64,000 nt of DNA from a plasmid: sequence record NZ_OX291475.1. The stretch is one strand, 5' to 3'. Made by a program: the position numbers and the translations under genes. This document shows positions 21,080 through 40,939 of this stretch, in pieces (positions within the stretch are counted from its first letter, which is position 1; each line of letters opens with the position of its first letter). The notes under the pieces were generated by a model, which was not told the origin of the DNA, did no database searches, and saw nothing but the letters and a program-made list of their open reading frames with translations.

Positions 21080-21081
21080 TC

Positions 21082-22016: not shown

Positions 22017-22038
22017 GGGGTCAGTTTGGATATCGAAA

Positions 22039-23419
22039 ATTATTGTACTATAAGGGCTTCCCCGGCATGTCAACGCCGGTGTTTACGGTTTCTGTCTGCA
22101 CTATAGTAAAAAAATAAAGGGGAGAGACTGCGGTACTATAAACGGTCATGATGAATCGTCATCGATTCGGACCCTGATGAAAGACGCTCGTGAGGCTCTA
22201 GTTCGTTAGTCGGGTACACTTGCCCTGTACAATAAGCAGATATACCTCACGGGGTCTAACCCTTTATCATCAACGAGTTGCAGAACAGATGGTCATACAG
22301 CTTTGTACTTTAGCTGGCTGAGTACAACCTGAAATCATCACCGTAATGCAATGATGCCCAGCACAGTCTTGCATTTTTGGCAGCGATGGCAACAACAGCG
22401 CGCCAGTATCCTCTGCGTTCGACCAGTGAGCAGACCCAACGACTGAATAAATCAGTCCTTTTCTCCGCCCCGATCAGTACCGAGCGGGCACCCTGAACCA
22501 GAAGTGTTCTCAGATACGAATCGCCAGCTTTCGTTATCCTGCCAAGCTTCGACTTTCCGCCGCTGCTGTACTGCGATGGTGTCAGTCCCAGCCAGGCTGC
22601 CAGCTGGCGCCCATTCTTAAAATCATGTGCATTACCGATACTGGCGACCAGCGCACAGGCCGTTGTGGGGCCAACGCCCTTCAATTCCATCAGCCGCTGA
22701 CTGCGATGATCTGTTTTGGCCATGCGGGACAAAATTCGGTCATATTCAGCGATGTTATCTTCAATGCGAGCAACGTGCTCCAGCAAATCATCAACACATT
22801 GCTGAACCTGAAGTGGTAAAGAATTCTTCTGCTCAAAAACTATGTGGCGCAGGGCATCTGTACTTTGTGGGGCGATAACGCCGAATTCAGATATCAACCC
22901 CCGGAGACGATTATATGTTGCTGTTTTCTCTTCGATAAAACCCTGTCGGGTACGATGCAGACACTGCATTGCCTGCTGGCTCTCATCCTTAACCGGCACA
23001 AACCGCATATGTGGGCGACGAACCGCCTCGCAGATAGCCTGAGCATCAGCTGCATCATTTTTCCCTGATTTACCAGCCATGCGGTAAGGCGATACAAATT
23101 TAGCGGCCATCAGACGCGGCTCATGACCATACTGCCGAAACAGTCTTGCCCAGTAATGAGCCCCGGAGCACGCCTCCATCCCGATAACACAGGGCGGCAA
23201 ACCAGCAATCAGCCCGGGAAGAGCTGCGCGGGTTACTCTGGATTTAACCAGAACGGTTTTGCCATTCTGGTCAACGCAATGAACAGCGAACACATTTTTA
23301 GCAAGATCGATACCGACAGTAGTAATGGTCATAACGAATCCCTCCGGGGTTGTGTTTACCCCATGATTGCACAAGAGTTAATCAGGCACATAATCAGGGG
23401 AAGTCCCTTCCATTCGTTA
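22039..23419 (-). mobile_element. IS110-family (IS1111-group-like) insertion sequence, copy 1 (1381 bp), inside the left IR of the outer transposon
   Basis: Identical to the 39131-40511 copy. Splits the IR into a 22-nt outer part and a 16-nt inner part (AGGTTATTTTTTGACC at 23420-23435). Confidence 0.7.
22310..23374 (-). CDS. IS110-family transposase (DEDD)
   Basis: 354 aa. N-terminal VGIDLAKNVFAV plus C-terminal DDFKNGRQLAAWLGLTPSQYSSGGKSKLGRITKAGDSYLR, typical of IS110/IS1111 transposases. Confidence 0.85.
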   Translation of the reverse strand: MCNHGVNTTPEGFVMTITTVGIDLAKNVFAVHCVDQNGKTVLVKSRVTRAALPGLIAGLPPCVIGMEACSGAHYWARLFRQYGHEPRLMAAKFVSPYRMAGKSGKNDAADAQAICEAVRRPHMRFVPVKDESQQAMQCLHRTRQGFIEEKTATYNRLRGLISEFGVIAPQSTDALRHIVFEQKNSLPLQVQQCVDDLLEHVARIEDNIAEYDRILSRMAKTDHRSQRLMELKGVGPTTACALVASIGNAHDFKNGRQLAAWLGLTPSQYSSGGKSKLGRITKAGDSYLRTLLVQGARSVLIGAEKRTDLFSRWVCSLVERRGYWRAVVAIAAKNARLCWASLHYGDDFRLYSAS

Positions 23420-25958
23420 AGGTTATTTTTTGACCTGCCTAATTTAGCTGGCCTCAGCCGACGAAACTTACCGGCTGACGGTATCCGGTTGCTTTTCCAT
23501 ATATAATCGCCTGTCAGATTGATGTGTTCCCAGCCTAGCGGGGACAAATGCGACAGCAGTTGCTCGTTGATCTTCACTCCCTTACGCTTCAGAGCATCGA
23601 CAGCTCTTTCCATATAGACGGTATTCCACAGGGATATGGCAGCTGTCAGGAGCGTCAGTCCACTGGCGCGATAGCTCTGATTTTCCGGTTTTCGGTCCCT
23701 GATTTCTCCCAGCCGGTGCATAAATACCGCTCGCGCCAGCGCGTTACGGGCTTCACCTTTATTCAGCCCCGCCTGTACCCGCCGACGCAGTGCAGGATCG
23801 CGGAACCAGTCGAGCATAAACAGAGTTCGTTCAATACGGCCAATTTCTCTCAGTGCTTTGGCCAGCCCGTTTTGCTTGGGGTAGCTGGCAAGCTTTTTCA
23901 GCATCAGGGATGCCGTCACGGTTCCCTGCTTTATCGAGGTTGCCAGACGCAGCACTTCACGCCAGTGAATTTCGATCTCTTTCAGATTCAGGCTGGTTGT
24001 TGATATCAGTGACTGAAGCGCCGGGTACTGGCCTGCTTTCCCTTTGATAAATAGCTTCTTGTCGTGGAGATCCCTGATTCGCGGACAGAACGCAAATCCC
24101 AGCAGATGCATCAGGGCAAAGACATGATCGGTGAAACCCGCTGTATCGGTGTAATGCTCCCTGATTTCCAGGTCGCTTTCGTGGTACAGCAAGCCATCGA
24201 GCACATGGGTTGAATCTCTGACCCGACTGATTATGCAGGTGTAAAACGGGCTGTATTGATCCGAAATATGGGTATAAAACTGACGTCCGGGCTCCTGCCC
24301 GTATTTCGGGTTAACCTGCCCTGCGTAGCGGCCTGATCTGCCTGTTCTGAAATTCTGTCCATCTGATGATGATGTTGTCCCGTCTCCCCAGAATGCCGCC
24401 AGCGGCCTTTTCCCCTGCGCGTTTACCAGCTCTGCAAGGGCTGCTGAATAGGTTTCGTCGCGGATGTACCATGCCTGAATATCTTCGAGTGATGATTTGG
24501 TGCTACCGGGGCAGGCTTCCGCCATTTTGGTCAGGCCAAGATTGATGCCATCCGCAAGAATGGTGGTGAGAAGCAGGCGGATATCGGGACGGGTAATGTC
24601 AGTTTTTATATGCGAAAAATGTCGGGTAAACGTCGTCCAGCTGTTTACCTCATCGAGAATTTCCGTGATTTTAGGGCGCGGTAGCATGCTGTAAACCAGC
24701 TCTGCCAGCGGTGAAACCTGCACCGGAACGCTGTTATCCAGCGGAGAGACTTTTACGCCCCTGTAAGATATTTCCACATCGGGCAGTTCACCAAGGGCAG
24801 CCATGGCATTGACCTCTTCAAGCCTGGACTGAAGCAGGGTCATACGGCTGGTAATGTACTCATGATAATCAGCAGATACGGGAAGTGGCAGCGCCGGTGT
24901 GAGTTTGTCAAAGTCCTTTTCGGGAATGAGGTAATCATCAAAATTTTTGTAGCGGCGTGAGCCTTTAACCCAGATGTCCCCGGAACGCAACGCCCCCTTA
25001 AGCTCGCTGAGCGCACAAAATTCATAGTACTGCCGGTCAATACCCGCAGGTGTAATTACCACCTTGCGCCAACTTTCTGGGACAAACTCAAGCGGCGCGG
25101 TGGCCGGAACTTTACGTGACTGCTTCCGGTACATATCCTTGATCACAACCAGCGCATCAGCCAGAGGTTGCGCTGCCGGAGTTGCGATTAACTGTAAAGC
25201 TGACAACATGCGCGGGGCATATTTCCGTAATGTGCTGTATTTCTCGGTAATAATATGCAGCGGGTCAAAATTATTTTTTCTGGCGAGATGGCGTGTTTCC
25301 TCCAGACTGGCGACAAATTCAGGCCATGGGAGTATGTTTTCTATTGCGAGCCATGGATCTCCCCCGGAATCACGGGCATCAGACAGCGCCTGACCGACAT
25401 TGATGTACTGCCTCAGTTTTGACTGGATCAGCTTTCCGGTCTGCTGAAGGCGCTCAGCCTGTGTTCTTTTGGCTTTGCTGAAAAGGCTGTTCAGCATTCG
25501 CTCATGCAACTCAATCACTTCGTCTGTCAGTGTGGCTCTGGCTTCTTCCAGCACGCACACCAGGATCGCATGACGCCGGGCTGCTGAAAATCGGGTCAAA
25601 TCCCGGCTGCTCATCTTTCGGCCTTCCCGCGCCAGTTTCAGCAACCGGTTCTGGTGAATGGTACGATCTATACCTTCCGGTAATGCCAGCGATTCAATGC
25701 TACTGAGCCGATCAAGGTGTTGCAGCACGTTCTTACCATTGATTTTACCCGGAGGTTGCAGAAGCCATGTCAGCCTGGAAGACTGATTATCCGATGACTC
25801 AAGTAAACAATCCAGAGCATCCCTGTGAGCCGGAGTTAACGGGGCATTCAGGGTCTGAAACACGATTTTATCGCCGCCTGCCATGGCCTCAGCACAGGAA
25901 CGCTCCACGACATCAATCGAGGGGATTATCACGTTGTTCTGCCGGAGCCAGACCAGTA
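23420..25958 (-). pseudogene. tnpA: Tn3-family transposase tnpA of the outer transposon, C-terminal ~860 codons (split by nested transposon)
   Basis: Collinear with the intact TnpA at 30509-33475 from about residue 130 onward. Native C-terminus ..KFRRLRPAKLGRSKNNL runs into the IR/IS junction. Confidence 0.75.
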
Positions 25959-25980
25959 GGGGTCGTCTCAGAAAACGGAA

Positions 25981-27307
25981 TCTATGGTCACTCCCGTTTT
26001 TGCAACACCGATTTTGACGACAAGTTGGCTTGCTTGAATCTATCCGGCGTCTGAATGGGATTTTATTCCCGCGCCTTGATGAGTTCCGCGCCTGATGAAC
26101 CTCCAGAAAATATACGGCTTCAATGAGCCTTTCCGTTTTACAGGTTCCTCAACAGGCCGGTGGGCCGTTAGTATCATCAATATCAGTATTCGCAAAACCA
26201 GATCAGTAATTCTTTAAACCGGTGTATTTCTGCCGTTATGCTACATAAGTTTGCTGTCGTGCCGTTAGGGCCCAGGCTATTCTGGCCAGCTTGTTTGCCA
26301 GAGCACAAGTGACGACAAAGTTGCTTTTCCGGCACAGTAAATCCCTGACCCAATCGGCCAATTTGCCAGACTGGTGTTCCAGTTTTTGTATGAATACCCT
26401 GGCACATTGAACCAACAAAGTTCGGATCTTTTTATTACCTCGCTTACTAATTCCCAGCAATGTCGTCCTACCTCCCGTGCTGTACTGCCGAGGTACAAGC
26501 CCTGTTGCCGCCGCAAAGTCACGGCTGCTGGCGTACTGCTTCCCGTCGCCAATCTCAGTTGAAATAGTACTCGCTGTCAGTGTTCCGACGCAGGGAATGC
26601 TCAGCAAGCGCTGTCCAACCTCATCTTCGTCCAACTTTCGTTTCAACTGGGATTCCAAATCTTTAATCTGCTCAACAAGATAGTGATAATGCTGTTGTAA
26701 TTTCAGCAATAACTGGCTGAGGTAAAGAGGCAAACTATTATCCTCAAGAATGGTACTCAGTCGGCTAATAACGGCAGCTCCTCGGGGAACGCTAATGCCA
26801 AATTCCAGCAGAAAAGCATGCATTTGATTGGTTGTTTTTACCTTATCCTGAACCAGGGATTCACGGACACGATGCAGAGCCCGCATTGCCTGCTGAGATT
26901 CCGTTCTGGGCTGCACAAAACGCATAGACGGACGCGATGCAGCTTCACAAATAGCTTCGGCGTCGACAAAGTCGTTTTTATTGCTTTTAACGAACGGGCG
27001 GACAAATTGTGGTGATATCAGCTTTGGGGAATGCCCCAACTCTTCCAACTTGCGTGCCATAAAGTGAGAACCGCCACAGGCTTCCATTGCGATGGTTGTA
27101 GCGGGGCATGTCGCCAAAAATTCGATCAACTTTGGCCGGGTAAATTTTTTACGGTAAACAGCCTTCCCGCGACGATCCTGGCAATGAATATGGAAAGAGT
27201 TTTTACCCAGATCGATACCAATGAGCGCAATGTTTTCCATGATAGTTCTCCGAATGAAAGCCTGTCCTCAGCATAGTACCGGGAAGGAGGGAGTGACCAT
27301 CTCATTA
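25981..27307 (-). mobile_element. IS5075/IS4321-like IS110-family element, copy A (1327 bp)
   Basis: Inserted at position 22|23 of a Tn21-type IR, the canonical target of IS4321/IS5075. Termini TCTATGGTCACTCCC ... GGGAGTGACCATCTCATTA. Confidence 0.8.
26236..27240 (-). CDS. IS5075-like IS110-family transposase
   Basis: 334 aa, MENIALIGIDLGKNSFHIHC... Identical copy at 33554-34558. Confidence 0.85.
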   Translation of the reverse strand: MENIALIGIDLGKNSFHIHCQDRRGKAVYRKKFTRPKLIEFLATCPATTIAMEACGGSHFMARKLEELGHSPKLISPQFVRPFVKSNKNDFVDAEAICEAASRPSMRFVQPRTESQQAMRALHRVRESLVQDKVKTTNQMHAFLLEFGISVPRGAAVISRLSTILEDNSLPLYLSQLLLKLQQHYHYLVEQIKDLESQLKRKLDEDEVGQRLLSIPCVGTLTASTISTEIGDGKQYASSRDFAAATGLVPRQYSTGGRTTLLGISKRGNKKIRTLLVQCARVFIQKLEHQSGKLADWVRDLLCRKSNFVVTCALANKLARIAWALTARQQTYVA

Positions 27308-27318
27308 AATAAAGCACG

Positions 27319-27876
27319 CTAAGCGTGCGTGGAGGCTGGCACCCAGCGGTACAGCGTCGGAATGGACACGCCGAGGTTCTTGGCCACGTCCTTGGGCGGC
27401 ACCCCGCTGGCCAGCAGCTTCTTGGCCGACTCGATCTTGCTGTCGGTCATCTTCGGCTTGCGGCCGCCTTTGCGGCCGAGCTGCTTGGCGACTTCCAGCC
27501 CGGCGCGGGTGCGCTCGACGGTCAGCTCGCGCTCCATTTCGGCAAGGCTCGCCATGACGTGGAAGAAGAACCGCCCGGATGGTGTGCCGGTGTCGATGGA
27601 GTCGGTGAGGCTCCTGAACTGGACACCGTGCTTGTGCAGATCGCCGACCAGATCGACCAGTTGCTTGACCGACCGGCCCAGCCGGTCGAGCTTCCAGACG
27701 ACCAAAGTATCGCCTTCGCGCAGCATTTCGAGCGTCTTGGCCAAGCCAGGCCGGTCTGCCCGCGTGCCACTCACCTTGTCCTCGAAGACCTTTTTACATC
27801 CGGCCTTGCTCAAGGCTTCGCGTTGCAGCTCCAGGTTCTGATCCTGCGTCGAGACGCGCGCATAGCCAATCAACAT
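27319..27876 (-). CDS. tnpR: Serine recombinase/resolvase TnpR of nested transposon
   Basis: MLIGYARVSTQDQNLELQ (catalytic Ser in the RVST motif) with a C-terminal HTH. Stop codon lies inside the IR (CTAAG). Confidence 0.85.
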   Translation of the reverse strand: MLIGYARVSTQDQNLELQREALSKAGCKKVFEDKVSGTRADRPGLAKTLEMLREGDTLVVWKLDRLGRSVKQLVDLVGDLHKHGVQFRSLTDSIDTGTPSGRFFFHVMASLAEMERELTVERTRAGLEVAKQLGRKGGRKPKMTDSKIESAKKLLASGVPPKDVAKNLGVSIPTLYRWVPASTHA

Positions 27877-28241
27877 GGCTTGTCTCGCGCCCGGTCGATG
27901 CGTTCCTGCATCGCCTGCATCACTTCTTCGTGGGTGTACGATCTGGCGTTGGCGTCGGTGGCTTGCCGCAGGGCTTCCTCAACCTCGCGCGTCATCCGCT
28001 CGTAATCCTCCGGCCACAGCGCTTGCTCCATGCGCAGCGACGCCTGACCCAGCAGGTGCAGCAGGCTGAACAGCCGCATGTCGTTGGTGGCGACGATGCG
28101 CTCCCGAATCTGCTCCTGAATAGCTTCGCTAGCCCGATGCGCTTGTGGTGTGGCAGTCCCCTCGTAGTCAGCGGGGAATTCCGCTTCCTCGGCAATCCTT
28201 GCCCAGGCGCTGGCCAGCGCCTCGATGGTTGACGTGCTCAT
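27870..28241 (-). CDS. Hypothetical protein (possible TnpM-like/res-overlapping ORF)
   Basis: ORF 27870..28430 trimmed to MSTSTIEALAS at 28241. GC-rich context, so it could be spurious and instead overlap the res site. Confidence 0.3.
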   Translation of the reverse strand: MSTSTIEALASAWARIAEEAEFPADYEGTATPQAHRASEAIQEQIRERIVATNDMRLFSLLHLLGQASLRMEQALWPEDYERMTREVEEALRQATDANARSYTHEEVMQAMQERIDRARDKPC

Positions 28242-28750
28242 TTCCGCCGCTCCTGTGCTCTTTGGCGAATCAACCGGCCAAGGGGCCTCGACGCGAAAAC
28301 CAGCAGCATCACGCCTATCGGATACCAGGTCGAGAAGACCACCAAGGCATCGAAGGCTGGCCGTCCGGTGTTGGTAGGCAGTACGGCGGTCACAGCCATC
28401 AACCCGCCGACCGTCCAGATGATGCGCCACACGTAGGGCATCACGCGGGGCACGTAGCCGTCATCGAAAGCGGTCTGGTAGTAGCGGCGCAGGCCGCGCT
28501 CGGCAAGCGCCTGGCGCTGCCGCTCCGACAGCGCATCCGTCCGGCCATACCAGCGCCGGAATGGTGGACAGCGCAGCAGCAAAGGGGTGAAGAGGATCAT
28601 CACCGCCACGATCGCGACACCCCACGCCATGACGGCGCCGGCATCGGGCCGCTTGGCGTTCTCGATCACGGGCGCGAAGACGCCCGGAGCACCGATCATC
28701 CAGAACAGCGCAATGTGCTGATGGAAGGAGAGCTTCATTTGCTCATCCAC
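28238..28750 (-). CDS. Integral membrane hypothetical protein
   Basis: 170 aa with ~4 hydrophobic segments. Confidence 0.45.
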   Translation of the reverse strand: MDEQMKLSFHQHIALFWMIGAPGVFAPVIENAKRPDAGAVMAWGVAIVAVMILFTPLLLRCPPFRRWYGRTDALSERQRQALAERGLRRYYQTAFDDGYVPRVMPYVWRIIWTVGGLMAVTAVLPTNTGRPAFDALVVFSTWYPIGVMLLVFASRPLGRLIRQRAQERRK

Positions 28751-29061
28751 TTGCGCAGCAGGCGCTTTTTCAGGGAGGCGCGTTCTTGCGGGTTGCGTCC
28801 CTTGTGATTGGCGATGCGATCCGCCGTGGCGGCCTGGCGCTTGACGGGCCAGTAGGAGCGGCCATCCTTGCCCATCGACCAGACGCTGCTGGCCTGGTTT
28901 TCCAGCAGGGGCAGATGGGCGCTCAGGGCTTCGGGCGACGCGCTGGTCAGCGCCGTGCGCTCACGGGTGCGCCAGCGCTGATGCCAGAGCTTCTTGTCCT
29001 CGCGCTCGCTGCCGCAGGTCGTGTGCCCGACGATGGGTGTTTTGCGGCGGCTGCGGCTCAT
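28735..29061 (-). CDS. Basic small hypothetical protein
   Basis: 108-aa ORF, Arg/Lys rich. Confidence 0.3.
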   Translation of the reverse strand: MSRSRRKTPIVGHTTCGSEREDKKLWHQRWRTRERTALTSASPEALSAHLPLLENQASSVWSMGKDGRSYWPVKRQAATADRIANHKGRNPQERASLKKRLLRKWMSK

Positions 29062-29315
29062 AACGTAGTGGTCTCCAAGAACATTCAGGACTGATCCCAG
29101 GCGTCGATGGTCAAGACCTGATCGGCAGGACAGGCGGCTACGCGGTCGGGAACTGGATGGTGTTCAGTCTCATGCCGACCCCATTCGATTGATCGCGTCG
29201 CTTGCGGCACGCTGCGACGCAAGGAGGTTTGCGACCTGGTTTAGCAGCCGTGTCCGCTGCATGTCTGTTACCTATCTCCCCGACCGCTCATTGGACCAAC
29301 TCCAGAGATTGGGCT

Positions 29316-29672
29316 CTATCGCTCAGCCAATACGAAACCGGCATTGGCTGATGCCACAACCGAGACTAACACAAATGGCTCGGTACCTGTATTTCGCGCC
29401 CCGTGCACTTGGCCCGGTCTTGCCACGGCTATCTCACCTTCCCTGAGGGCACGAACAATCCCATTGCCCTGAAAGTAATCAGCCATTCCCGACAAAACAG
29501 TCCACGTGTCTTGGCCGTGAGGATGAATGTGAGCCGCAATTTCCTGCCCGGGATGGACATGCCAAACCACGATAATTGAGTCTCGGGTTTCAAGCACAAC
29601 GGAACGAATAGGCTCGCCTTCGGACGGCTGAACATACTCGGCTACAGAAAATATTCTCGATTCAACAGTCAT
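29316..29672 (-). CDS. Cupin-domain protein
   Basis: HVHPGQEIAAHIHPHGQDTW...GEIAVARPGQVHGARN (two cupin His motifs). Start MTVESRIF at 29672 with an AAAGAGGGA RBS. Confidence 0.65.
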   Translation of the reverse strand: MTVESRIFSVAEYVQPSEGEPIRSVVLETRDSIIVVWHVHPGQEIAAHIHPHGQDTWTVLSGMADYFQGNGIVRALREGEIAVARPGQVHGARNTGTEPFVLVSVVASANAGFVLAER

Positions 29673-30063
29673 CGGAGATCCCTCTTTCACAGTTGTCGTT
29701 ACGGTCTTCATCGTCGGCATCCTGACGCACGGCGGGCAATTGCTGGAGCAACGCCGGCAGCCATTCCTGTACCGTCTCCCACACCACATCGAGGTTGATG
29801 TCGAAATAGCCGTGAGCCATGCGATTACGCATATTGCGCATGCTGCGCCACGGCACGTCGGCATGCGCCTGGGTGAACTCGACGTAGCCATCCATCACCT
29901 TTGTGGCCGCCTCGCCGATGACGATCAGGCTCATGATGACGGCCTGCTGGGTGCGCTTGTCGGCCAAGAAGTCGTCCTTGGCCATCCCTTCCACGAAGCT
30001 GCGCGCATCGGTTGCGGCCTGCTGAATGTGGTCGAGGTAATCGGGCAGGCGGTTCTCGCTCAT
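29662..30063 (-). CDS. hepT: HepT-like HEPN ribonuclease toxin (DUF86)
   Basis: RNRMAHGY (Rx4HxY motif). 133 aa. Overlaps the mntA stop. Confidence 0.8.
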   Translation of the reverse strand: MSENRLPDYLDHIQQAATDARSFVEGMAKDDFLADKRTQQAVIMSLIVIGEAATKVMDGYVEFTQAHADVPWRSMRNMRNRMAHGYFDINLDVVWETVQEWLPALLQQLPAVRQDADDEDRNDNCERGISDDC

Positions 30064-30356
30064 ATCGGTTGCGCCTCCGCGAGCACCTTGGCCCGGAACT
30101 TCGGCGGCAGGTCGCCGGGAGTCAGCAGATCGACGTCAACGCCGAGCAGCGATTTCAGTTCTTCTTCCAAATCGCCCAAGTCCAACAACGTGGCACCGGG
30201 CAGCGCATCGACCAACAGGTCGAGGTCGCTGCCATCCCGGTCGGTGCCATGCAGCACCGAGCCGAAGACGCGCGGGTTCGCGGCGCGAAAGCGGCCTACC
30301 GCTTCACGCACTGCGCTTCGCTTCATGTCAAGCACAACAGACGGTCGCATGCGCAT
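30060..30356 (-). CDS. mntA: MntA-like minimal nucleotidyltransferase antitoxin
   Basis: GSVLHGTDRDGSDLDLLVD (GSx10DxD NTase motif). 98 aa. Confidence 0.8.
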   Translation of the reverse strand: MRMRPSVVLDMKRSAVREAVGRFRAANPRVFGSVLHGTDRDGSDLDLLVDALPGATLLDLGDLEEELKSLLGVDVDLLTPGDLPPKFRAKVLAEAQPI

Positions 30357-30508
30357 CCTTTCTTATCGAAACTCGTTGAGATGATATGCAATCAAGAATA
30401 GAATTTCAAGAACTATTTTCGAGAATCGCAATGCCTTGATTCCCGTGCCGCGCCGGTTGCCTTGGCGGGCTTGTCACAAACCTACGTTTTCAAGAAGAAG
30501 GAAACCGC

Positions 30509-33475
30509 ATGCCCCGCCGTTCGATCCTCTCCGCCGCCGAGCGCGAAAGCCTGCTGGCGTTGCCGGACACCAAGGATGAGTTGATCCGTCACTACACGTT
30601 CAGCGAAAGCGACCTCTCCATCATCCGGCAGCGGCGCGGCCCGGCCAATCGGCTGGGCTTCGCGGTGCAGCTCTGCTACCTGCGCTTTCCCGGCGTCATC
30701 CTTGGCGCTGATGAGCCACCGTTCCCGCCATTGCTGAGACTGGTCGCCAACCAGCTCAAGGTCGGCATCGAAAGCTGGGACGAGTACGGGCAGCGTGAGC
30801 AGACCCGACGCGAGCACCTGGTCGAGCTGCAAACGGTGTTCGGCTTCCAGCCGTTCACGATTGGCCACTACCGGCAGGCTGTCCAGTTGCTGACCGAGCT
30901 GGCCATGCAAACCGACAAGGGCATCGTGCTGGCCAGAGCCTTGATCGAGCACCTGCGGCGGCAGTCGGTCATTGTGCCCGCCCTCAACGCCGTCGAGCGG
31001 GCGAGCGCCGAAGCGATTACCCGCGCCAACCGGCGTCTCTACGACGCCTTGGCTGAGCCGCTGACGGACGTGCATCGCCGTCGCCTCGACGATCTGCTCA
31101 AGCGCCGCGACAACGGCAAGACGACGTGGCTGGCCTGGCTGCGGCAATCCCCGGTCAAACCGAACTCGCGGCACATGCTGGAACACATCGAACGCCTCAA
31201 GGCGTGGCAGGCGCTCGACCTGCCCTCCGGCATCGAGCGGCTGGTTCACCAGAACCGGCTGCTCAAGATCGCCCGCGAGGGCGGCCAGATGACGCCCGCC
31301 GACCTGGCGAAGTTCGAGCCGCAGCGGCGTTACGCGACCCTGGTGGCGCTCGCCATCGAGGGCATGGCCACCGTCACCGACGAAATCATCGACCTGCATG
31401 ACCGCATCCTGGGCAAGCTGTTCAATGCCGCCAAGAACAAGCATCAGCAGCAGTTCCAGGCATCCGGCAAGGCGATCAATGCCAAGGTGCGGCTGTTCGG
31501 GCGCATCGGCCAGGCGCTGATCGAGGCCAAGCAAGCGGGCCGCGATCCGTTCGCCGCCATCGAGGCCGTCATGTCCTGGGATGCTTTCGCCGAGAGCGTC
31601 ACCGAAGCGCAGCGGCTCGCGCAACCCGAGGACTTCGATTTCCTGCACCGCATCGGCGAGAGCTACGCCACGCTGCGCCGCTACGCGCCGGAATTTCTCG
31701 ACGTGCTCAAGTTGCGGGCCGCGCCCGCCGCCAAGGACGTACTCGACGCCATCGAGGTGCTGCGCAGCATGAACAGCGACAACGCCCGCAAGGTGCCCAC
31801 CGACGCGCCGACCGAGTTCATCAAGCCGCGCTGGCAGAAGCTGGTGATGACCGACACCGGCATCGACCGGCGCTACTACGAACTGTGCGCGCTGTCGGAG
31901 CTGAAGAACGCGCTGCGCTCCGGCGACATCTGGGTGCAAGGCTCGCGCCAGTTCAAGGACTTCGAGGACTACCTGGTGCCGCCCGCGAAATTCGCCAGCC
32001 TCAAGCAGGCCAGCGAATTGCCGCTGGCCGTGGCCACCGATTGCGACCAGTACCTGCATGACCGGCTGACGCTGCTGGAAACGCAGCTCGCCACCGTCAA
32101 CCGCATGGCGCTGGCCAACGAGCTGCCGGACGCCATCATCACGGAGTCGGGCCTGAAGATCACGCCGCTCGATGCGGCGGTGCCCGATACCGCACAGGCC
32201 CTGATCGACCAGACGGCGATGATCCTACCGCACGTCAAGATCACCGAATTGCTGCTGGAGGTAGACGAATGGACGGGCTTCACCCGGCACTTCGCCCACC
32301 TGAAGTCAGGCGACCTGGCCAAGGACAAAAACCTGTTGCTGACCACGATCCTCGCCGACGCGATCAACCTGGGCCTGACCAAGATGGCGGAATCGTGCCC
32401 CGGCACGACCTACGCCAAGCTGGCCTGGCTGCAAGCCTGGCACATCCGCGACGAAACCTACGGGGCGGCACTGGCCGAGCTGGTCAACGCGCAGTTCCGA
32501 CATCCCTTCGCCGGGCATTGGGGCGACGGCACCACGTCATCGTCGGACGGCCAGAACTTCCGCACCGGCAGCAAGGCCGAGAGCACCGGCCACATCAATC
32601 CGAAATACGGCAGCAGCCCAGGGCGGACGTTCTACACCCATATCTCCGACCAGTACGCGCCGTTCCACACCAAGGTCGTGAACGTCGGCGTGCGCGACTC
32701 GACCTACGTGCTCGACGGCCTGCTGTATCACGAATCCGACCTGCGGATCGAGGAGCACTACACCGACACGGCAGGGTTCACGGACCACGTCTTCGCGTTG
32801 ATGCACCTGCTGGGCTTCCGCTTCGCCCCGCGCATTCGTGACCTGGGCGACACCAAGCTCTACATCCCGAAGGGCGATGCCACCTACGAGGCGTTGAAAC
32901 CGATGATCGGCGGCACGCTCAACATCAAGCACGTCCGCGCCCATTGGGATGAAATCCTGCGGATGGCCACCTCGATCAAGCAGGGCACGGCGACGGCCTC
33001 GCTGATGCTCAGGAAGCTTGGCAGCTACCCGCGCCAGAACGGCCTGGCCGTCGCCCTGCGTGAGCTGGGACGCATCGAGCGCACACTGTTCATCCTGGAC
33101 TGGCTGCAAAGCGTCGAGCTGCGCCGCCGCGTGCATGCCGGGCTGAACAAAGGCGAGGCGCGCAACGCGCTGGCCCGCGCCGTGTTCTTCAACCGCCTGG
33201 GGGAAATCCGCGACCGCAGCTTCGAGCAGCAGCGCTACCGGGCCAGCGGCCTCAACCTGGTGACGGCGGCCATCGTGCTATGGAACACGGTCTATCTGGA
33301 GCGGGCCGCGAACGCCTTGCGTGGCCACGGTCAAGCCGTCGATGACGGCCTGTTGCAGTACCTGTCGCCGCTCGGCTGGGAGCACATCAACCTGACCGGC
33401 GATTACCTCTGGCGCAGCAGCGCCAAGATCGGCGCGGGCAAGTTCAGGCCGCTACGGCCGCTGCAACCGGCTTAG
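30509..33475 (+). CDS. tnpA: Tn3-family transposase TnpA (intact) of nested transposon
   Basis: 988 aa with DDE-region motifs. Stop TAG lies inside the IR, as in Tn21-subfamily elements. Confidence 0.9.
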
Positions 33476-33486
33476 CGTGCTTTATT

Positions 33487-34813
33487 TAATGAGATGGTCA
33501 CTCCCTCCTTCCCGGTACTATGCTGAGGACAGGCTTTCATTCGGAGAACTATCATGGAAAACATTGCGCTCATTGGTATCGATCTGGGTAAAAACTCTTT
33601 CCATATTCATTGCCAGGATCGTCGCGGGAAGGCTGTTTACCGTAAAAAATTTACCCGGCCAAAGTTGATCGAATTTTTGGCGACATGCCCCGCTACAACC
33701 ATCGCAATGGAAGCCTGTGGCGGTTCTCACTTTATGGCACGCAAGTTGGAAGAGTTGGGGCATTCCCCAAAGCTGATATCACCACAATTTGTCCGCCCGT
33801 TCGTTAAAAGCAATAAAAACGACTTTGTCGACGCCGAAGCTATTTGTGAAGCTGCATCGCGTCCGTCTATGCGTTTTGTGCAGCCCAGAACGGAATCTCA
33901 GCAGGCAATGCGGGCTCTGCATCGTGTCCGTGAATCCCTGGTTCAGGATAAGGTAAAAACAACCAATCAAATGCATGCTTTTCTGCTGGAATTTGGCATT
34001 AGCGTTCCCCGAGGAGCTGCCGTTATTAGCCGACTGAGTACCATTCTTGAGGATAATAGTTTGCCTCTTTACCTCAGCCAGTTATTGCTGAAATTACAAC
34101 AGCATTATCACTATCTTGTTGAGCAGATTAAAGATTTGGAATCCCAGTTGAAACGAAAGTTGGACGAAGATGAGGTTGGACAGCGCTTGCTGAGCATTCC
34201 CTGCGTCGGAACACTGACAGCGAGTACTATTTCAACTGAGATTGGCGACGGGAAGCAGTACGCCAGCAGCCGTGACTTTGCGGCGGCAACAGGGCTTGTA
34301 CCTCGGCAGTACAGCACGGGAGGTAGGACGACATTGCTGGGAATTAGTAAGCGAGGTAATAAAAAGATCCGAACTTTGTTGGTTCAATGTGCCAGGGTAT
34401 TCATACAAAAACTGGAACACCAGTCTGGCAAATTGGCCGATTGGGTCAGGGATTTACTGTGCCGGAAAAGCAACTTTGTCGTCACTTGTGCTCTGGCAAA
34501 CAAGCTGGCCAGAATAGCCTGGGCCCTAACGGCACGACAGCAAACTTATGTAGCATAACGGCAGAAATACACCGGTTTAAAGAATTACTGATCTGGTTTT
34601 GCGAATACTGATATTGATGATACTAACGGCCCACCGGCCTGTTGAGGAACCTGTAAAACGGAAAGGCTCATTGAAGCCGTATATTTTCTGGAGGTTCATC
34701 AGGCGCGGAACTCATCAAGGCGCGGGAATAAAATCCCATTCAGACGCCGGATAGATTCAAGCAAGCCAACTTGTCGTCAAAATCGGTGTTGCAAAAACGG
34801 GAGTGACCATAGA
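33487..34813 (+). mobile_element. IS5075/IS4321-like element, copy B (1327 bp), in the right IR of the nested transposon
   Basis: Same IR position as copy A, inverted orientation. Identical transposase at 33554..34558. Confidence 0.8.
33554..34558 (+). CDS. IS5075-like IS110-family transposase
   Basis: Identical to 26236..27240. Confidence 0.85.
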   Translation: MENIALIGIDLGKNSFHIHCQDRRGKAVYRKKFTRPKLIEFLATCPATTIAMEACGGSHFMARKLEELGHSPKLISPQFVRPFVKSNKNDFVDAEAICEAASRPSMRFVQPRTESQQAMRALHRVRESLVQDKVKTTNQMHAFLLEFGISVPRGAAVISRLSTILEDNSLPLYLSQLLLKLQQHYHYLVEQIKDLESQLKRKLDEDEVGQRLLSIPCVGTLTASTISTEIGDGKQYASSRDFAAATGLVPRQYSTGGRTTLLGISKRGNKKIRTLLVQCARVFIQKLEHQSGKLADWVRDLLCRKSNFVVTCALANKLARIAWALTARQQTYVA

Positions 34814-34835
34814 TTCCGTTTTCTGAGACGACCCC

Positions 34836-35276
34836 CAGTAGTTCTTCGGCCAGGAGAATACCTTTATCGGTGCGCGTCGCCATCGGCAGCAGGTGTGTAA
34901 TACAGTCCTGCTGTATTTTGCCGGTGAACGCTTTTAAGCCAAGATAGCGGTACAGTTCGGTTAAATGTTCGCGTCGCGTGGTTTCCCTGCCGGAAAGGTA
35001 AGCTGGCCAGAGATCCCCGGTAAGTTTTAGCCTGCTGGCGATATGCTTCAGCAGCGCATCAGAGGGAGGGATTTTTTTATCCGGGGTAAAGCCGACATTT
35101 TTCAGATAGCAAAGAAGGACGGCAAAACCAAAACGGCTGGCAGGTTTACGGTGGGCACTGATAAGTGCCAGATCATGTTCACTGAAATACGCCATCCGGG
35201 TCAGCGTTAACTCTTCGTCCGGTAATGCCAGTAATGATTCTCTTTCCGACAGAGAAAGAATCTGCCTCCTTGCCAT
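34836..35276 (-). pseudogene. tnpA: tnpA of the outer transposon, N-terminal ~147 codons
   Basis: [22 protein letters not shown].. parallels the N-terminus [20 protein letters not shown] of the intact TnpA. The ORF reads through into the nested IR. Confidence 0.75.
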
Positions 35277-35289
35277 ATAGTTTCCCTCG

Positions 35290-35440
35290 TAAATTATCCG
35301 ATGCGGTATTTTTAACAGAAATGCTTATCGCATAAGGGTACACCCTGACGCCATATTCAAAACGTGACGGCACACGATGAATGACATAACCTATATGCGA
35401 TAGATTAAATGCAATAACTTAAATGCGATAACGTGGTGGA
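35290..35440. promoter_or_regulatory. res site of the outer transposon (between divergent tnpA and tnpR)
   Basis: Three imperfect palindromic TGCGATA / TATCGCA subsites (TTATCGCATAAG, TATGCGATAGA, AATGCGATAACG). Confidence 0.55.
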
Positions 35441-35443
35441 AAA

Positions 35444-36079
35444 ATGTTCATCAGAGCTTATTTAAGGGCATCGACGGAAGATCAGTTCGCCGATCGGGCA
35501 AAAGAGATGCTGGAGCAGTTTGTTCAGGAGCGGGGACATAAAATAGCCAGTTACTACCGGGAGAACATCAGCGGTACAAAACTTGACCGCCCGGAACTGG
35601 GGCGCTTACTGATGGACAGTCACCGCAATGATATTTTACTGGTCGAGCAGATAGACCGTCTGACCCGTCTGAGCAACAGCGACTGGATGACGCTGAAAAA
35701 GCAAATCGAGCAACACGAGCTGCGGATTGTCAGCCTCGATGTACCCACCTCATGGCAGGCGCTGTCAGATAAAGATCCTTCGCAGGCTGACCCAATCACC
35801 CGCGCCGTGATAACCGCCATCAATAATATGCTTATCGACCTGATGGCCTCGATGTCGCATAAGGACTGGCTGAGCCGCCGCCATCGGCAGAAGCAGGGAA
35901 TTGAACGGGCACATACGCTGGGAAAATACCGGGGCAAACAGGCCGATCAGGAACGACATAAGAAAGTTCTGTATTACCGACAGGTCAAGAAACTGAGCAT
36001 AAGAGAAACTGCTGAAGCCACCGGTTACAGCACATCTCAGGTCTGCAGGATTCAGGCCCTGTTCAGGCCTGAAAATTAA
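35444..36079 (+). CDS. tnpR: Serine resolvase TnpR of the outer transposon
   Basis: MFIRAYLRASTEDQ catalytic motif, C-terminal HTH (LSIRETAEATGYSTSQVCRI). 211 aa. Confidence 0.8.
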   Translation: MFIRAYLRASTEDQFADRAKEMLEQFVQERGHKIASYYRENISGTKLDRPELGRLLMDSHRNDILLVEQIDRLTRLSNSDWMTLKKQIEQHELRIVSLDVPTSWQALSDKDPSQADPITRAVITAINNMLIDLMASMSHKDWLSRRHRQKQGIERAHTLGKYRGKQADQERHKKVLYYRQVKKLSIRETAEATGYSTSQVCRIQALFRPEN

Positions 36080-36106
36080 GCACATTTTCTGAGGCTGGAA
36101 ATCAAC

Positions 36107-36958
36107 TCATGCTGACAGCCTGAGCCTGTTGGCATGGTAAGCAATGTGCTCACCAATAAAGCTGGAAATGAAATAATAGCTGTGGTCGTAACCAGTATGA
36201 TATCGGAATGATGTGTTGATGTTCATCTCGTTGCACACTCTTTCAAGACTTTTAGTGCGTAACTGATCTTCATAAAAGGCGTCACTTAATCCCTGGTCAA
36301 TAAAAATTTCTGGTAATTTCGCACCCTGTAAAATGAGACTGACGGGATCGTAGTGCTCCCACGTTTTTTTATTTTCACCCAGGTACGCGGTGAATGCCTG
36401 TTGTCCCCATGGCACCTGAGAAGGTGACACTATTGGTGAAAATGCCGATACACTCACATATTCATCAGGATTTCGCAGCGACAGAACCAGCGCTCCCAGC
36501 CCCCCCATGGAGTGACCGGATATTGATTTCCTTGATGTTACAGGTAAATGCTCCATGACAACATCCGGAAGCTCATGGAGAATATAGTCATACATCCTGT
36601 AATGCGTGTTCCACGGATGTTCCGTCGCGTTCAGATAAAATCCGGCACCCTGGCCCAGATCGTAGCTGTCAGCATCTGCGACATGCTCTCCACGGGGACT
36701 GGTATCAGGAACAACGACGATGATGTTGTTCCTGGCGGCATAATGCTGCATACCCGATTTGGTGATGAAATTCTGCTCCGTACAGGTCAGACCCGAGAGC
36801 CAGTACAGGACCGGCAGTTTTTCTGTTGCTGCTTTGGGGGGAAGATAAACACCGAAATTCATCCCACAATTAAGTGTTTGTGAATTATGGCGGTATACGT
36901 TTTGCCAGCCGCCAGCGCTGGCATGCTGCTCGATGAGTTCCATCAGCCTCTGTCTCAT
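36107..36958 (-). CDS. frmB: S-formylglutathione hydrolase (esterase D family)
   Basis: 283 aa. GHSMGG nucleophile elbow. Collinear with FrmB/YeiG. Confidence 0.8.
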   Translation of the reverse strand: MRQRLMELIEQHASAGGWQNVYRHNSQTLNCGMNFGVYLPPKAATEKLPVLYWLSGLTCTEQNFITKSGMQHYAARNNIIVVVPDTSPRGEHVADADSYDLGQGAGFYLNATEHPWNTHYRMYDYILHELPDVVMEHLPVTSRKSISGHSMGGLGALVLSLRNPDEYVSVSAFSPIVSPSQVPWGQQAFTAYLGENKKTWEHYDPVSLILQGAKLPEIFIDQGLSDAFYEDQLRTKSLERVCNEMNINTSFRYHTGYDHSYYFISSFIGEHIAYHANRLRLSA

Positions 36959-37008
36959 GGTTATTTCCCCTGACAGGGAGTCAGGGGAAGTCTCTTTATA
37001 GCCGGACG

Positions 37009-37407
37009 TCAGATGAACGTATAAGCCGTGATTTTGTTACCCGCAGGGTCTCGCAGGTAGGCTGCATAGGCTCCAGGGAGATGGCTGCGCGGGCCAGGCT
37101 GACCTTCATCTTTCCCTCCGGCGGCAAGGCCCGCGGCGTGGAAAGCATCAACTTCTTCCGGACTTGCAGCTGCAAAGCCGACAGTAACGCCGTTGGCCGA
37201 TGGCGCTTCACCGTTGCCCGGATGTGCAATAATAAAGGCTGGCTTTTCGCGACCATAAAGTACCCAGCCATTGCCAAACGGGCCGAGGTTATTGATGCCA
37301 AGCGTACCGAGGACAGCATCGTAAAAATCAGCGGATTTTTCAACATCGGATGCACCGATGAAGACGTGGGAAAAAACGTCATTACCAGAAATTACAGGTG
37401 TTGCCAT
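37009..37407 (-). CDS. VOC (glyoxalase/bleomycin-resistance fold) family protein
   Basis: 132-aa ORF in the frm operon. Composition and size fit the VOC family. Weak call. Confidence 0.45.
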   Translation of the reverse strand: MATPVISGNDVFSHVFIGASDVEKSADFYDAVLGTLGINNLGPFGNGWVLYGREKPAFIIAHPGNGEAPSANGVTVGFAAASPEEVDAFHAAGLAAGGKDEGQPGPRSHLPGAYAAYLRDPAGNKITAYTFI

Positions 37408-37448
37408 GATCCATTTCCTTCAGTTGGTTTGACTCAGTTAAGACGCTA

Positions 37449-38588
<1,140 letters not shown>

Positions 38589-38864
38589 CTATTTAAGATA
38601 GGCGCGAACCAGTTCAATCGTATCGTCAACGGATTTACTGATTTCATGGCTGTAGCTGTCATTCTGGTCAAAGGTTTCCCGTATGTGGCTCTCGAGCACC
38701 TCTGCCATAAGACCGTTAGCTGCTCCGCGAACGGCAGCTATCTGCTGAAGAATGGAACGGCATTCAGCACCATTTTCCAGCGCTCTTTCCAGAGCATCAA
38801 TCTGACCCCGAATGCGGCGAACACGGGTAAGGACCTTTTTTTTCTCTTCAGGAGTACTGGGCAT
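38589..38864 (-). CDS. frmR: FrmR formaldehyde-responsive repressor (CsoR/RcnR family)
   Basis: 91 aa. [14 protein letters not shown] four-helix-bundle signature. Begins [11 protein letters not shown]. Confidence 0.85.
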
Positions 38865-38887
38865 TATTTACCTCACCATTTTTGATT

Positions 38888-38940
38888 TTATATACTATAG
38901 TGGAGTATATAATTATCGTCAATGCATACTCCACTATAGT
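38888..38940. promoter_or_regulatory. frm promoter/operator with two inverted ATACTATAGTGGAGTAT elements
   Basis: TATACTATAGTGGAGTATATA and ATACTCCACTATAGTATA palindromic pair immediately upstream of frmR. Confidence 0.6.
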
Positions 38941-39130
38941 ATAACTAAGAATAAACATAACTACCTTTATTTACGATATAAATCATATATTTATATTATT
39001 TTTGGCTGTGATACTGTCGGAAGGAAAGTTACTACAAAAATGATATCTACCGATACGGGATTTGGGGCATAGGCGGTTCTGTTAAATTTCGCCAGATATT
39101 GGCTCATCATTGATGGTCAAAAAATGAGCC

Positions 39131-40511
39131 TAACGAATGGAAGGGACTTCCCCTGATTATGTGCCTGATTAACTCTTGTGCAATCATGGGGTAAACACAA
39201 CCCCGGAGGGATTCGTTATGACCATTACTACTGTCGGTATCGATCTTGCTAAAAATGTGTTCGCTGTTCATTGCGTTGACCAGAATGGCAAAACCGTTCT
39301 GGTTAAATCCAGAGTAACCCGCGCAGCTCTTCCCGGGCTGATTGCTGGTTTGCCGCCCTGTGTTATCGGGATGGAGGCGTGCTCCGGGGCTCATTACTGG
39401 GCAAGACTGTTTCGGCAGTATGGTCATGAGCCGCGTCTGATGGCCGCTAAATTTGTATCGCCTTACCGCATGGCTGGTAAATCAGGGAAAAATGATGCAG
39501 CTGATGCTCAGGCTATCTGCGAGGCGGTTCGTCGCCCACATATGCGGTTTGTGCCGGTTAAGGATGAGAGCCAGCAGGCAATGCAGTGTCTGCATCGTAC
39601 CCGACAGGGTTTTATCGAAGAGAAAACAGCAACATATAATCGTCTCCGGGGGTTGATATCTGAATTCGGCGTTATCGCCCCACAAAGTACAGATGCCCTG
39701 CGCCACATAGTTTTTGAGCAGAAGAATTCTTTACCACTTCAGGTTCAGCAATGTGTTGATGATTTGCTGGAGCACGTTGCTCGCATTGAAGATAACATCG
39801 CTGAATATGACCGAATTTTGTCCCGCATGGCCAAAACAGATCATCGCAGTCAGCGGCTGATGGAATTGAAGGGCGTTGGCCCCACAACGGCCTGTGCGCT
39901 GGTCGCCAGTATCGGTAATGCACATGATTTTAAGAATGGGCGCCAGCTGGCAGCCTGGCTGGGACTGACACCATCGCAGTACAGCAGCGGCGGAAAGTCG
40001 AAGCTTGGCAGGATAACGAAAGCTGGCGATTCGTATCTGAGAACACTTCTGGTTCAGGGTGCCCGCTCGGTACTGATCGGGGCGGAGAAAAGGACTGATT
40101 TATTCAGTCGTTGGGTCTGCTCACTGGTCGAACGCAGAGGATACTGGCGCGCTGTTGTTGCCATCGCTGCCAAAAATGCAAGACTGTGCTGGGCATCATT
40201 GCATTACGGTGATGATTTCAGGTTGTACTCAGCCAGCTAAAGTACAAAGCTGTATGACCATCTGTTCTGCAACTCGTTGATGATAAAGGGTTAGACCCCG
40301 TGAGGTATATCTGCTTATTGTACAGGGCAAGTGTACCCGACTAACGAACTAGAGCCTCACGAGCGTCTTTCATCAGGGTCCGAATCGATGACGATTCATC
40401 ATGACCGTTTATAGTACCGCAGTCTCTCCCCTTTATTTTTTTACTATAGTGCAGACAGAAACCGTAAACACCGGCGTTGACATGCCGGGGAAGCCCTTAT
40501 AGTACAATAAT
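39131..40511 (+). mobile_element. IS110-family IS, copy 2 (1381 bp), inside the right IR of the outer transposon
   Basis: Identical to copy 1. Inner IR remnant GGTCAAAAAATGAGCC (39115-39130) and outer 22 nt at 40512-40533. Transposase at 39176..40240 (TTG start). Confidence 0.7.
39176..40240 (+). CDS. IS110-family transposase (identical to 22310..23374)
   Basis: 354 aa identical protein. Confidence 0.85.
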   Translation: MCNHGVNTTPEGFVMTITTVGIDLAKNVFAVHCVDQNGKTVLVKSRVTRAALPGLIAGLPPCVIGMEACSGAHYWARLFRQYGHEPRLMAAKFVSPYRMAGKSGKNDAADAQAICEAVRRPHMRFVPVKDESQQAMQCLHRTRQGFIEEKTATYNRLRGLISEFGVIAPQSTDALRHIVFEQKNSLPLQVQQCVDDLLEHVARIEDNIAEYDRILSRMAKTDHRSQRLMELKGVGPTTACALVASIGNAHDFKNGRQLAAWLGLTPSQYSSGGKSKLGRITKAGDSYLRTLLVQGARSVLIGAEKRTDLFSRWVCSLVERRGYWRAVVAIAAKNARLCWASLHYGDDFRLYSAS

Positions 40512-40533
40512 TTTCGATATCCAAACTGACCCC

Positions 40534-40866
40534 ATGCTGGCCACGCAAGATACCCGCGACATCGTTGCGGCGGCTGAGAAAGCCCTCGATGCCATCTGGC
40601 GTGACGGTTTTCGCTATCAGAAAGCGGGCATTATGCTGAACGATTTCTGCGACAAGTCAGGCCAGATCGACCTATTCGACGAACAGCCACCGCGCGCCGG
40701 CAGTGAACAGCTGATGAAGGTTATCGATGGCATAAACCAGTCCGGGTTGGGGAAAGTTTGGTTTGCTGGCCAAGGGATCAATAAAGCCTGGACAATGCGT
40801 CGCGAACTGTTATCCCCTTGTTACACAACGCGCCTGCAAGATATACCGGTAGCAAGGTTGGCTTAA
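40534..40866 (+). pseudogene. umuC: umuC 3' portion
   Basis: ..ATQDTRDIVAAAEKALDAIWRDGFRYQKAGIMLNDF...LSPCYTTRLQDI is collinear with the E. coli UmuC C-terminus. Continues the frame of 21082-22016 across the transposon. Confidence 0.85.
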
Positions 40867-40939
40867 AATATGGGATGGTTATGAACGACGTTGGTCCGAA
40901 CGCCAAATGAAAGGATCCATTAGGATCCTCTGCCTCCCT

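Follow-up and report, generated by a model that had tools for sequence, protein, structure and literature searches.

IS4321 and IS5075, two insertion sequences (ISs) of the IS1111 group, reportedly target the terminal inverted repeats (IRs) of transposons. We analysed a 64,000-nt stretch of DNA from a Serratia-type plasmid (sequence record NZ_OX291475.1, hereafter the window) in which two nested Tn3-family transposons, between positions 22017 and 40533, carry an IS110-family element in each of their four IRs. The locus shows a second, distantly related IS1111 clade homing to another Tn3-family lineage and to a different position in the IR. In IS1111 elements the seekRNA is encoded downstream of the transposase gene (tnp), its top-strand match lying 5' of its bottom-strand match, and for relatives of the elements studied here the need for the seekRNA has been shown experimentally (PMC11187229). 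Bridge RNAs have been predicted in 93% of IS1111 elements (PMC11208160). The described seekRNA and bridge-RNA systems are directed to a linear chromosomal site, an attC site or a repetitive extragenic palindromic (REP) element, whereas the target here is a transposon IR. An ISfinder group comprising IS5708, ISEc76, ISSm1, ISCfr26, IS1618 and ISLad6 has at least 85% amino acid identity within the group and ~37% to IS4321/IS5075 (PMC11187229 supplement). On the transposon side, Tn6901 is a 6901-bp transposon of plasmid Rts1, later renamed Tn6399a; Tn6399b is Tn6399a::IS1618, and an IS1618-type insertion at the end is also present in pBK31551 (PMC6339943, PMC4551976). The frm cargo of this lineage is predicted to confer formaldehyde resistance, and its IRs have been described as 47 bp long (bioRxiv 10.1101/2022.09.12.507718). 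The locus is of a known kind, an IS1111-group element homing to Tn3-family IRs, and Tn6901/Tn6399, the IS1618 group and IS4321 are all already catalogued.

Two nested pairs of long inverted repeats delimit the locus (outer arms 22016-23435 and 39115-40534, inner arms 25952-27324 and 33470-34842). Every arm holds an IS110-family transposase gene (NF033542, E 1.9e-105 and 7.5e-102), and Tn3-family transposase genes lie between the arms. The segment 22017-40533 (18,517 bp) is identifiable from its sequence as Tn6901/Tn6399, the Tn3-family formaldehyde-resistance transposon (frmR-frmA-VOC-fghA) known from Rts1. Its two parts in the window are 99.76% (C-terminal part of tnpA) and 99.65% (remainder) identical to Rts1 Tn6901, or 99.7% overall; Tn6399a, Tn6399b and the Tn7489/TnEc1 lineage are its closest known counterparts. 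The GGGG-started IRs of ~38 bp, Tn3-type TnpA (NF033527), serine resolvase, 5-bp target duplication and frm cargo are those of a Tn3-family element. The transposon interrupts the umuC gene of the plasmid, where the flanking open reading frames match UmuC and the duplication ATGCT (22012..22016) recurs at 40534-40538. The lengths of the parts also sum exactly to that of the segment (6901 + 8877 + 5 + 2 x 1367 = 18,517).

The boundaries of the outer IS follow from sites that lack it. Rts1 offers one such site, and the Serratia marcescens plasmid pQC08_2 (AP028558.1) another; the latter is 100% and 99.9% identical to the window in the two flanks and has the transposon inserted at the identical point of umuC, flanked by the same 5-bp repeat. 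In both plasmids the two outer IRs are contiguous and read GGGGTCAGTTTGGATATCGAAAATTATTGTAC|GTTAAG and GGGGTCAGTTTGGATATCGAAAATTATTGTAC|GTTAGG, where the bar marks the insertion point; the Rts1 ends are GGGGTCAGTTTGGATATCGAAAATTATTGTACGTTAAG (tnpA end) and ...TTGTACGTTAGG (frm end). The occupied site in the window reads ...TTGTAC|TATAAGGGC...CCATTC|GTTAAG. Because the IS-free IRs run uninterrupted across this junction, the outer IS has a length of 1367 bp and separates IR position 32 from position 33 (32|6, with a 1-nt ambiguity that also allows 31|7), at 22049-23415 on the minus strand (copy A) and, as an identical copy in the opposite orientation, at 39135-40501 on the plus strand (copy B). 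Occupied and empty sites differ by exactly these 1367 bp, so insertion was precise and left no target duplication, and it occurs in a single orientation. At the tnpA end, IR positions 1-32 occupy 22017..22048 (plus strand), identical to the contiguous positions 1-32 in Rts1 and pQC08_2, and positions 33-38 (GTTAAG) occupy 23416..23421 (plus strand), as placed by the IS-free Rts1 site and by independent insertions of relatives. At the frm end, the same IS-free comparison puts positions 38-33 at 39129..39134, where the minus strand reads GTTAGG, and positions 32-1, followed by ATGCT, at 40502..40538 (minus strand).

A first-pass annotation, made from the window alone, had already recognized an IS110-family element in identical copies at both outer ends, and this holds. 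The IS-free versions of the frm transposon that it proposed looking for exist, in Rts1 and pQC08_2, and they revise its 1381-bp length to 1367 bp and its placement 22 nt inside the termini (22|16) to 32|6. When the 22 and 16 nt were joined, together with the adjoining interior, and searched in PLSDB, IS-free transposons could be matched only by opening a gap of 14 nt (query 123 nt, record 137 nt). It had also described the inner flanks of the two copies as similar but not identical, which they are (AGGTTA... and GGCTCA...), and as the remaining 16 nt of the IR, which they are not, since they correspond to IR positions 37-52 within an extended imperfect repeat.

The outer IS can be assigned, as a genuine IS110-family (IS1111-group) element, to the catalogued IS1618/IS5708/ISCfr26/ISLad6 clade. 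It is 88.8% identical at the nucleotide level to IS1618 of Yersinia pestis pMT1 and 78% to IS5708, and it shares with this group the target position and (near-)identical ends (left 20 nt, right ~15 nt). Its DEDD-type (RuvC-like) transposase, encoded at 22310..23332 on the minus strand in copy A and at 39218-40240 in copy B, scores 352.8 bits against NF033542 (cutoff 140; E 1.9e-105), and alignment with the inner transposase shows the C-terminal GL-P----S/T-G motif as GLTPSQYSSG. The protein is likely 340 aa long, starting at the ATG at 23332 as in the RefSeq annotation of relatives; the 354 aa given earlier depend on an upstream TTG. The outer IS had also been called unrelated to the inner one, yet the two transposases are 39% identical. 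Subterminal repeats are preceded on the left by GAATGG(A) (then AAGGGACTTCCCC) and followed on the right by ATA (after GGGGAAGCCCTT), with a 1-nt G ambiguity as described for IS4321; the resulting extensions of 6-7 nt on the left and 3 nt on the right are those of an IS1111 element. So is the layout of the non-coding DNA, with 261 nt following the transposase gene and 83 nt preceding its ATG. If the two ends were joined, right to left, the predicted circle junction, CCCTTATA|GAATGG (...GGGGAAGCCCTTATA|GAATGGAAGGG), would contain a promoter, TTGACA-17 nt-TAGAAT, that resembles the junction promoter reported for ISEc11 (PMC11187229). The exact 340-aa transposase occurs in at least 1000 contigs, and its protein cluster is labelled only 'IS110 family transposase'. 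The window copy of the IS differs from every relative fetched, and copies at least 99% identical to it are mostly in Citrobacter and Klebsiella plasmids.

The outer tnpA is split by a second transposon, an 8877-bp insert flanked by a 5-bp duplication (CAGTA) that is recognizable as an ISPa38-type element of the Tn21 subfamily; it carries a resolvase, a HepT/MntA-like pair, its own tnpA and two IS copies. These copies bear out the first-pass description of IS5075-like elements: both are 1327 bp long, identical, and split the Tn21-type IR GGGGTCGTCTCAGAAAACGGAA|AATAAAGCACGCTAAG at 22|16 (25980|25981, 27307|27308, 33486|33487 and 34813|34814, with a 1-nt A ambiguity). They have the ends (T)AATGAG.../...AGA(T) and the 12-bp subterminal repeats of IS4321/IS5075, and 331 of 334 transposase residues are identical to the IS4321 protein (PMC11187229 supplement). 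The inner elements are of the same type as IS4321/IS5075, with the same 22|16 position, one orientation and no duplication. The outer IS is like IS4321/IS5075 in its IR-specific, precise and oriented insertion, and differs in belonging to another clade, in using the IR of another Tn3-family lineage and in sitting at 32|6 rather than 22|16.

The target position is shared across the clade. Five plasmid relatives (IS1618 of pMT1, IS5708 and three others at 86-90% nucleotide identity) lie in the arrangement ...TAC|IS|GTTA(A/G)G... within differing GGGG-type IRs. A scan of 185,579 species genomes, one per species, with the invariant 20-nt left end of the outer IS as query found 49 loci, the majority of them in Enterobacterales genera and a few in other contigs. 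When the window and the five relatives from PLSDB are included, 59 left-end copies could be tabulated, 48 of which have a left flank ending in CTTA(A/G/C)C. The distance to a CCC-ending tip was 32 nt in 22 of the 24 complete copies with enough flank, the orientation was always the same, and in all complete clade copies the right end adjoins the outer part of the IR. DNA beyond the tip was distinct in 21 of the 24 complete copies. At one locus (L040) the window's own IS type lies in another IR variant and so represents an independent insertion. The ends of the IS agree between independent insertions in many genera, a comparison that the first-pass annotation had put forward as a check. Its proposal that a second IS1111 lineage targets the IRs of a different Tn3-family lineage is upheld by these insertions; the geometry of IS4321/IS5075 that it assumed is not, as the clade inserts at 32|6, before the GTTAAG box. 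Among PLSDB records, the junction at the tnpA end of Tn6901-type transposons is empty in 1064 and occupied in 210, and that at the frm end is empty in 222 and occupied in 48, so that ~1/6 of such ends hold the IS.

Some individual loci from the scan are of separate interest. At L017 (Candidatus Pantoea alvi PQJV01000046.1, 144-1506), an IS5708-type IS is bordered on the left by the target type proper to it, after an IS26 end, and on the right by an ATTGTAC-type IR, probably reflecting recombination between IS copies in different IRs. In L004 (NZ_CP026211.1, 3001-5750), an 87%-related IS occurs twice in tandem, with 20 bp between the copies; the second copy is preceded by ...TGTTTTTTGTAC| and once more has GTTAAGGCT behind it, which could be a secondary GTAC site or a rearrangement. 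Clade copies also occur in assemblies labelled Nanosynbacter, Veillonella, Chryseobacterium and Brevibacterium (L025, L037, L027/L045/L052, L012/L015). L025 and L037 share identical flanks, with an IS26 end among them. These copies look like contamination or mis-binned enterobacterial plasmid DNA. Erwinia oleae has several clade copies (L011, L013, L041, L054) besides L036.

Downstream of the transposase gene of copy A, a structured non-coding RNA resembling a seekRNA or bridge RNA is predicted from a consensus fold (22096..22283, minus strand). The fold, computed from the non-coding regions of 20 distinct relatives, has 53 pairs, five of them with compensatory changes (including 77/127, 54/210 and 41/224), and takes the shape of a long outer stem around two internal-loop domains; the single-sequence fold of the window agrees (minimum free energy -50.4 kcal/mol, z -2.1). 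The domain on the stem CGUGAGG/CCUCACG (22189..22251, minus strand) is the predicted target-binding one, as its guides match the two halves of the IR. Guide 1, UUAUUGUAC (22227-22235, minus strand), lies on the 5' side, before the hairpin, and equals IR positions 24-32, up to the junction. Guide 2, ACUAACGAA (22202-22210, minus strand), is made up of the complement of IR positions 33-38 together with the initial 3 nt of the left end of the IS; on this 3' side the window has ACUAAC in place of the CUUAAC of the IS1618/IS5708 relatives, followed by GAA. The second domain (22130..22187, minus strand) is tentatively assigned to donor binding by analogy, the 3' side of its loop, UUUAUAGUAC, being the IS right end continued into the first 4 nt of the target. 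The seekRNAs of ISEc11, ISKpn4 and ISPa11 share the downstream non-coding location, the two-guide loop, the 5' position of the guide that pairs with the top strand, and a second loop fitting the ends of the IS (PMC11187229), and the cross-junction extensions in the outer IS resemble the handshake guides of the IS621 bridge RNA. The non-coding layout of the inner IS is similar and fitted to its own IR (AAAACGGAAA, hairpin, UAUUUUC).

Three variants of the IR, ATTGTAC, ATCCTAC and AAACGTAC, are tracked by the guides. Guide TATTGTAC accompanies a ..ATTGTAC| target, and the IS5708-type guide TATCCTAC accompanies a ..ATCCTAC| target at four loci (L005, L015, L026, L048), where the guide RNA UAUCCUAC goes with the target ...TTATCCTAC| in a distinct GGGGTCCGC-type IR. 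In Erwinia oleae, guide AAAACGTAC accompanies a ..AAAACGTAC| target in a Tn1000-like IR, and guide 2 CTTAGC accompanies CTTAGC|. This copy (L036, NZ_JNVB01000101.1, 305-1669) has the guides AAAACGUAC and CUUAGC and the target GGGGTTTGAGGGCCAATGGAACGAAAACGTAC|GCTAAG, an IR that we take to resemble that of Tn1000. L033 has a UUACC guide beside a CTTACC| flank. Over 16 distinct combinations, guide 1 matches its target at 129 of 144 positions, a value reached by 2 of 20,000 permutations, and guide 2 at 77 of 96 (382 of 20,000), although the combinations come from about three lineages and the permutation figures overstate their independence. At the sequence level, the loop guides are complementary to both target strands and change with the target, which is consistent with guidance by a seekRNA or bridge RNA.

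Besides the small number of lineages, several observations weigh against this interpretation. The 9-nt match of guide 1 in the window is, taken alone, reached by 60 of 3000 shuffles, and the match of guide 2 there extends over only 5-6 nt. Top-strand target matches in the window copy are in no excess over chance, the longest being reached by 2352 of 3000 shuffles. Pairing between left-end positions 3-10 and the 5' side of the putative donor loop has to include two G-U pairs. An Rfam scan of 21500-41000, judged by E-value, found no bridge- or seekRNA family and gave a single chance match to a small nucleolar RNA. Among the scanned loci, unrelated flanks surround a few left-end matches in beta-proteobacterial and other contigs, L017 combines an IS5708-type guide with an ATTGTAC flank, and the right flank of L011 resembles another IS end.

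We consider it highly probable that the locus arose when Tn6901 entered umuC, an ISPa38-type transposon entered its tnpA, and RNA-guided IS1111-group elements invaded all four IRs. Tn6901/Tn6399 would have transposed into the plasmid umuC gene with a 5-bp duplication, and the ISPa38-type transposon would later have split tnpA with a 5-bp duplication of its own. An IS4321/IS5075-type element would then have entered the inner IRs at 22|16 and the 1367-bp IS1618-clade element the outer IRs at 32|6. Both IS types are inserted precisely, without duplication and in one orientation, with the transposase gene reading toward the IR tip. The IS would excise as a circle, its right-left end junction building the TTGACA-17 nt-TAGAAT promoter, and its downstream region would yield a seekRNA or bridge RNA. 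In the first loop of this RNA, UUAUUGUAC would pair with the outer half of the IR and CUUAAC/CUAAC-GAA with the inner GTTAAG half, and the second loop may match the IS ends. Inverted 1.37-kb copies of the outer IS could then let the interior flip by homologous recombination.

Other accounts of the repeats and of their position were weighed against this history. The 1.4-kb inverted repeats might be the long terminal regions of the transposon itself rather than independent ISs, given that the outer repeats are identical, inverted and start near the tips, and that the outermost 40 nt after insertion are still like the native IR (38/40). The probability of this is negligible, as Rts1 Tn6901 and the pQC08_2 copy have contiguous IRs and lack the outer repeats, and the 1367-bp unit, with its own transposase, sits in the IRs of unrelated transposons in many genera. 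The paired IS copies could also have moved the intervening DNA as a composite transposon, since identical IS pairs bracket cargo at two nested levels. We regard this as very improbable: the duplications ATGCT and CAGTA directly border the Tn3-type IR tips rather than the IS copies, which is not the arrangement of a composite transposon, and the copies lie 32 or 22 nt inside the tips with no duplications of their own. Furthermore, an IS1111 element is mobilized singly, as a circle, through site-specific recombination (PMC11187229), and the same transposon exists at the same site without the outer IS in pQC08_2. The first-pass view of a composite-like structure with all four transposon ends capped is thus right about the capping and wrong about the composite.

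Homologous recombination or gene conversion between transposon copies, rather than repeated targeted insertion, might account for most of the spread of the IS among IRs. The mixed flanks of L017 do suggest recombination between IS copies, and plasmids with one end occupied often have both occupied. Still, near-identical ISs are found in sequence-distinct IRs of different transposons, with 21 of 24 outer contexts differing, and where one site is known both empty and occupied, the IS accounts exactly for the difference, which makes this explanation improbable, if less so than a composite transposon. A slightly higher, though still low, probability goes to recognition of the IR by the transposase protein alone, in which case the non-coding matches would be coincidental or have another use. 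This would fit the shortness of the guide matches and the imperfect guide 2 of the window copy. It fits poorly with three guide variants following three target variants, with guides placed in the internal loop of a conserved fold, with the distantly related inner IS having the same layout programmed for its own IR, and with the experimental need for a seekRNA in relatives (PMC11187229).

The comparison with pQC08_2 also bears on the later history of the locus. The interior of the transposon is inverted between the two plasmids: the 5' part of umuC adjoins the tnpA end in the window and the frm end in pQC08_2. In the pQC08_2 interior (L058, 50500-71500), tnpA is an intact 94.7% variant, the inner transposon is truncated, and a single IS4321-type copy is present. 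The simplest reading, we infer, is an inversion by homologous recombination between the outer inverted IS copies, and the difference between the plasmids suggests either such an inversion or precise loss of the IS. Inverted IS pairs of this kind can flip resistance regions. Compared with Tn6399b and the Rts1 form, the window has both ends occupied, tnpA split by the second transposon, and an interior inverted relative to pQC08_2. Two further records were considered and rejected: NZ_CP023917.1, as an outer-IS-free nested copy, is annotated with an intact Tn6901 beside an ISPa38-type element, and CP067618.1, as a nested copy, has a different arrangement.

Insertion at 32|6 leaves the transposon with a nearly native end. 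The capped outer ends (22017-22056 and 40494-40533) consist of IR positions 1-32 followed by TATAAGG, the reverse complement of the IS right end, in place of the native GTTAAGG; they match the native IR at 36 of 38 positions (38/40 by BLAST) and keep the conserved TAAG box. The right end of the outer IS therefore restores this box, whereas IS4321 splits its IR mid-way and does not. In Rts1, tnpA natively ends within the IR, its stop codon occupying positions 24-26 counted from the tip. With the IS at 32|33, the last codons of tnpA are consequently replaced and the frame runs into the IS (23356-23415 in the window); the RefSeq TnpA is 1012 aa long in an IS-capped copy (L057) and 995 aa in Rts1. 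In the literature, the IS1618 insertion of Tn6399b is described as an interruption of tnpA, and the placement given here amends the annotation of Tn6901/Tn6399 derivatives, whose records frequently list the IS as 'interrupting tnpA'. A rather speculative possibility, which we think unlikely to be right, is that the IS1618 clade acts as an RNA-guided hitch-hiker, a capped Tn6901-type end staying a substrate for TnpA so that the vehicle is preserved and the IS travels as cargo. The guide RNAs of the clade would then drift after the IR variants of Tn3-family transposons (the Tn6901/TnEc1 type, the ATCCTAC type and the Tn1000-like type). In the window itself, an IS interrupts each of the four IRs and the outer tnpA is broken as well, so that neither transposon is likely to be self-mobile, and the autonomy of Tn6901 is lost with its tnpA.

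The gain over earlier knowledge is incremental, as all the parts are catalogued. Publications on the clade and on Tn6901/Tn6399/TnEc1 gave annotations only, with no statement of 32|33 targeting or of co-variation; Partridge & Hall 2003 (J Bacteriol 185:6371) and ISfinder lay outside this search, so a prior description is possible. The natural changes in the guides that track IR variants offer a ready natural series for studying the reprogramming of seekRNAs and bridge RNAs.

The remaining features of the locus are as follows. The C-terminal portion of the outer tnpA (NF033527) lies at 23422..25958 on the minus strand, and the rest of Tn6901, including the N-terminal part of tnpA, at 34841..39128 (minus strand). 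Guided by the Rts1 annotation, this latter part contains the resolvase (35444-36079, plus strand), fghA/frmB (36107-36958), the VOC gene (36996-37382), frmA (37449-38558) and frmR (38589-38864). A Y-family polymerase (umuC-type) gene is split by Tn6901 both here (20980-22016 and 40534-40866) and in Rts1 (L001, 1-227); flanks and duplications differ between the two sites, which are therefore separate insertions. In the inner transposon, IR positions 1-22 (25959..25980, plus strand) are preceded by CAGTA (25954-25958), and positions 22-1 with the second CAGTA (34836-34840) lie at 34814..34840 (minus strand). IS4321/IS5075-type copy A, identified by its end sequences, repeats and NF033542, occupies 25981..27307 on the minus strand, with its tnp at 26236-27240, and the identical copy B occupies 33487..34813 on the plus strand. 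The ISPa38-type body between them, from IR positions 23-38 through 38-23 (27308..33486, plus strand), holds the resolvase (27319-27876, minus strand) and tnpA (30509-33475, plus strand). Next to this tnpA, a HepT/MntA-like (HEPN/nucleotidyltransferase) pair of toxin-antitoxin type was observed at 29662-30356 on the minus strand, with scores under the curated cut-offs.

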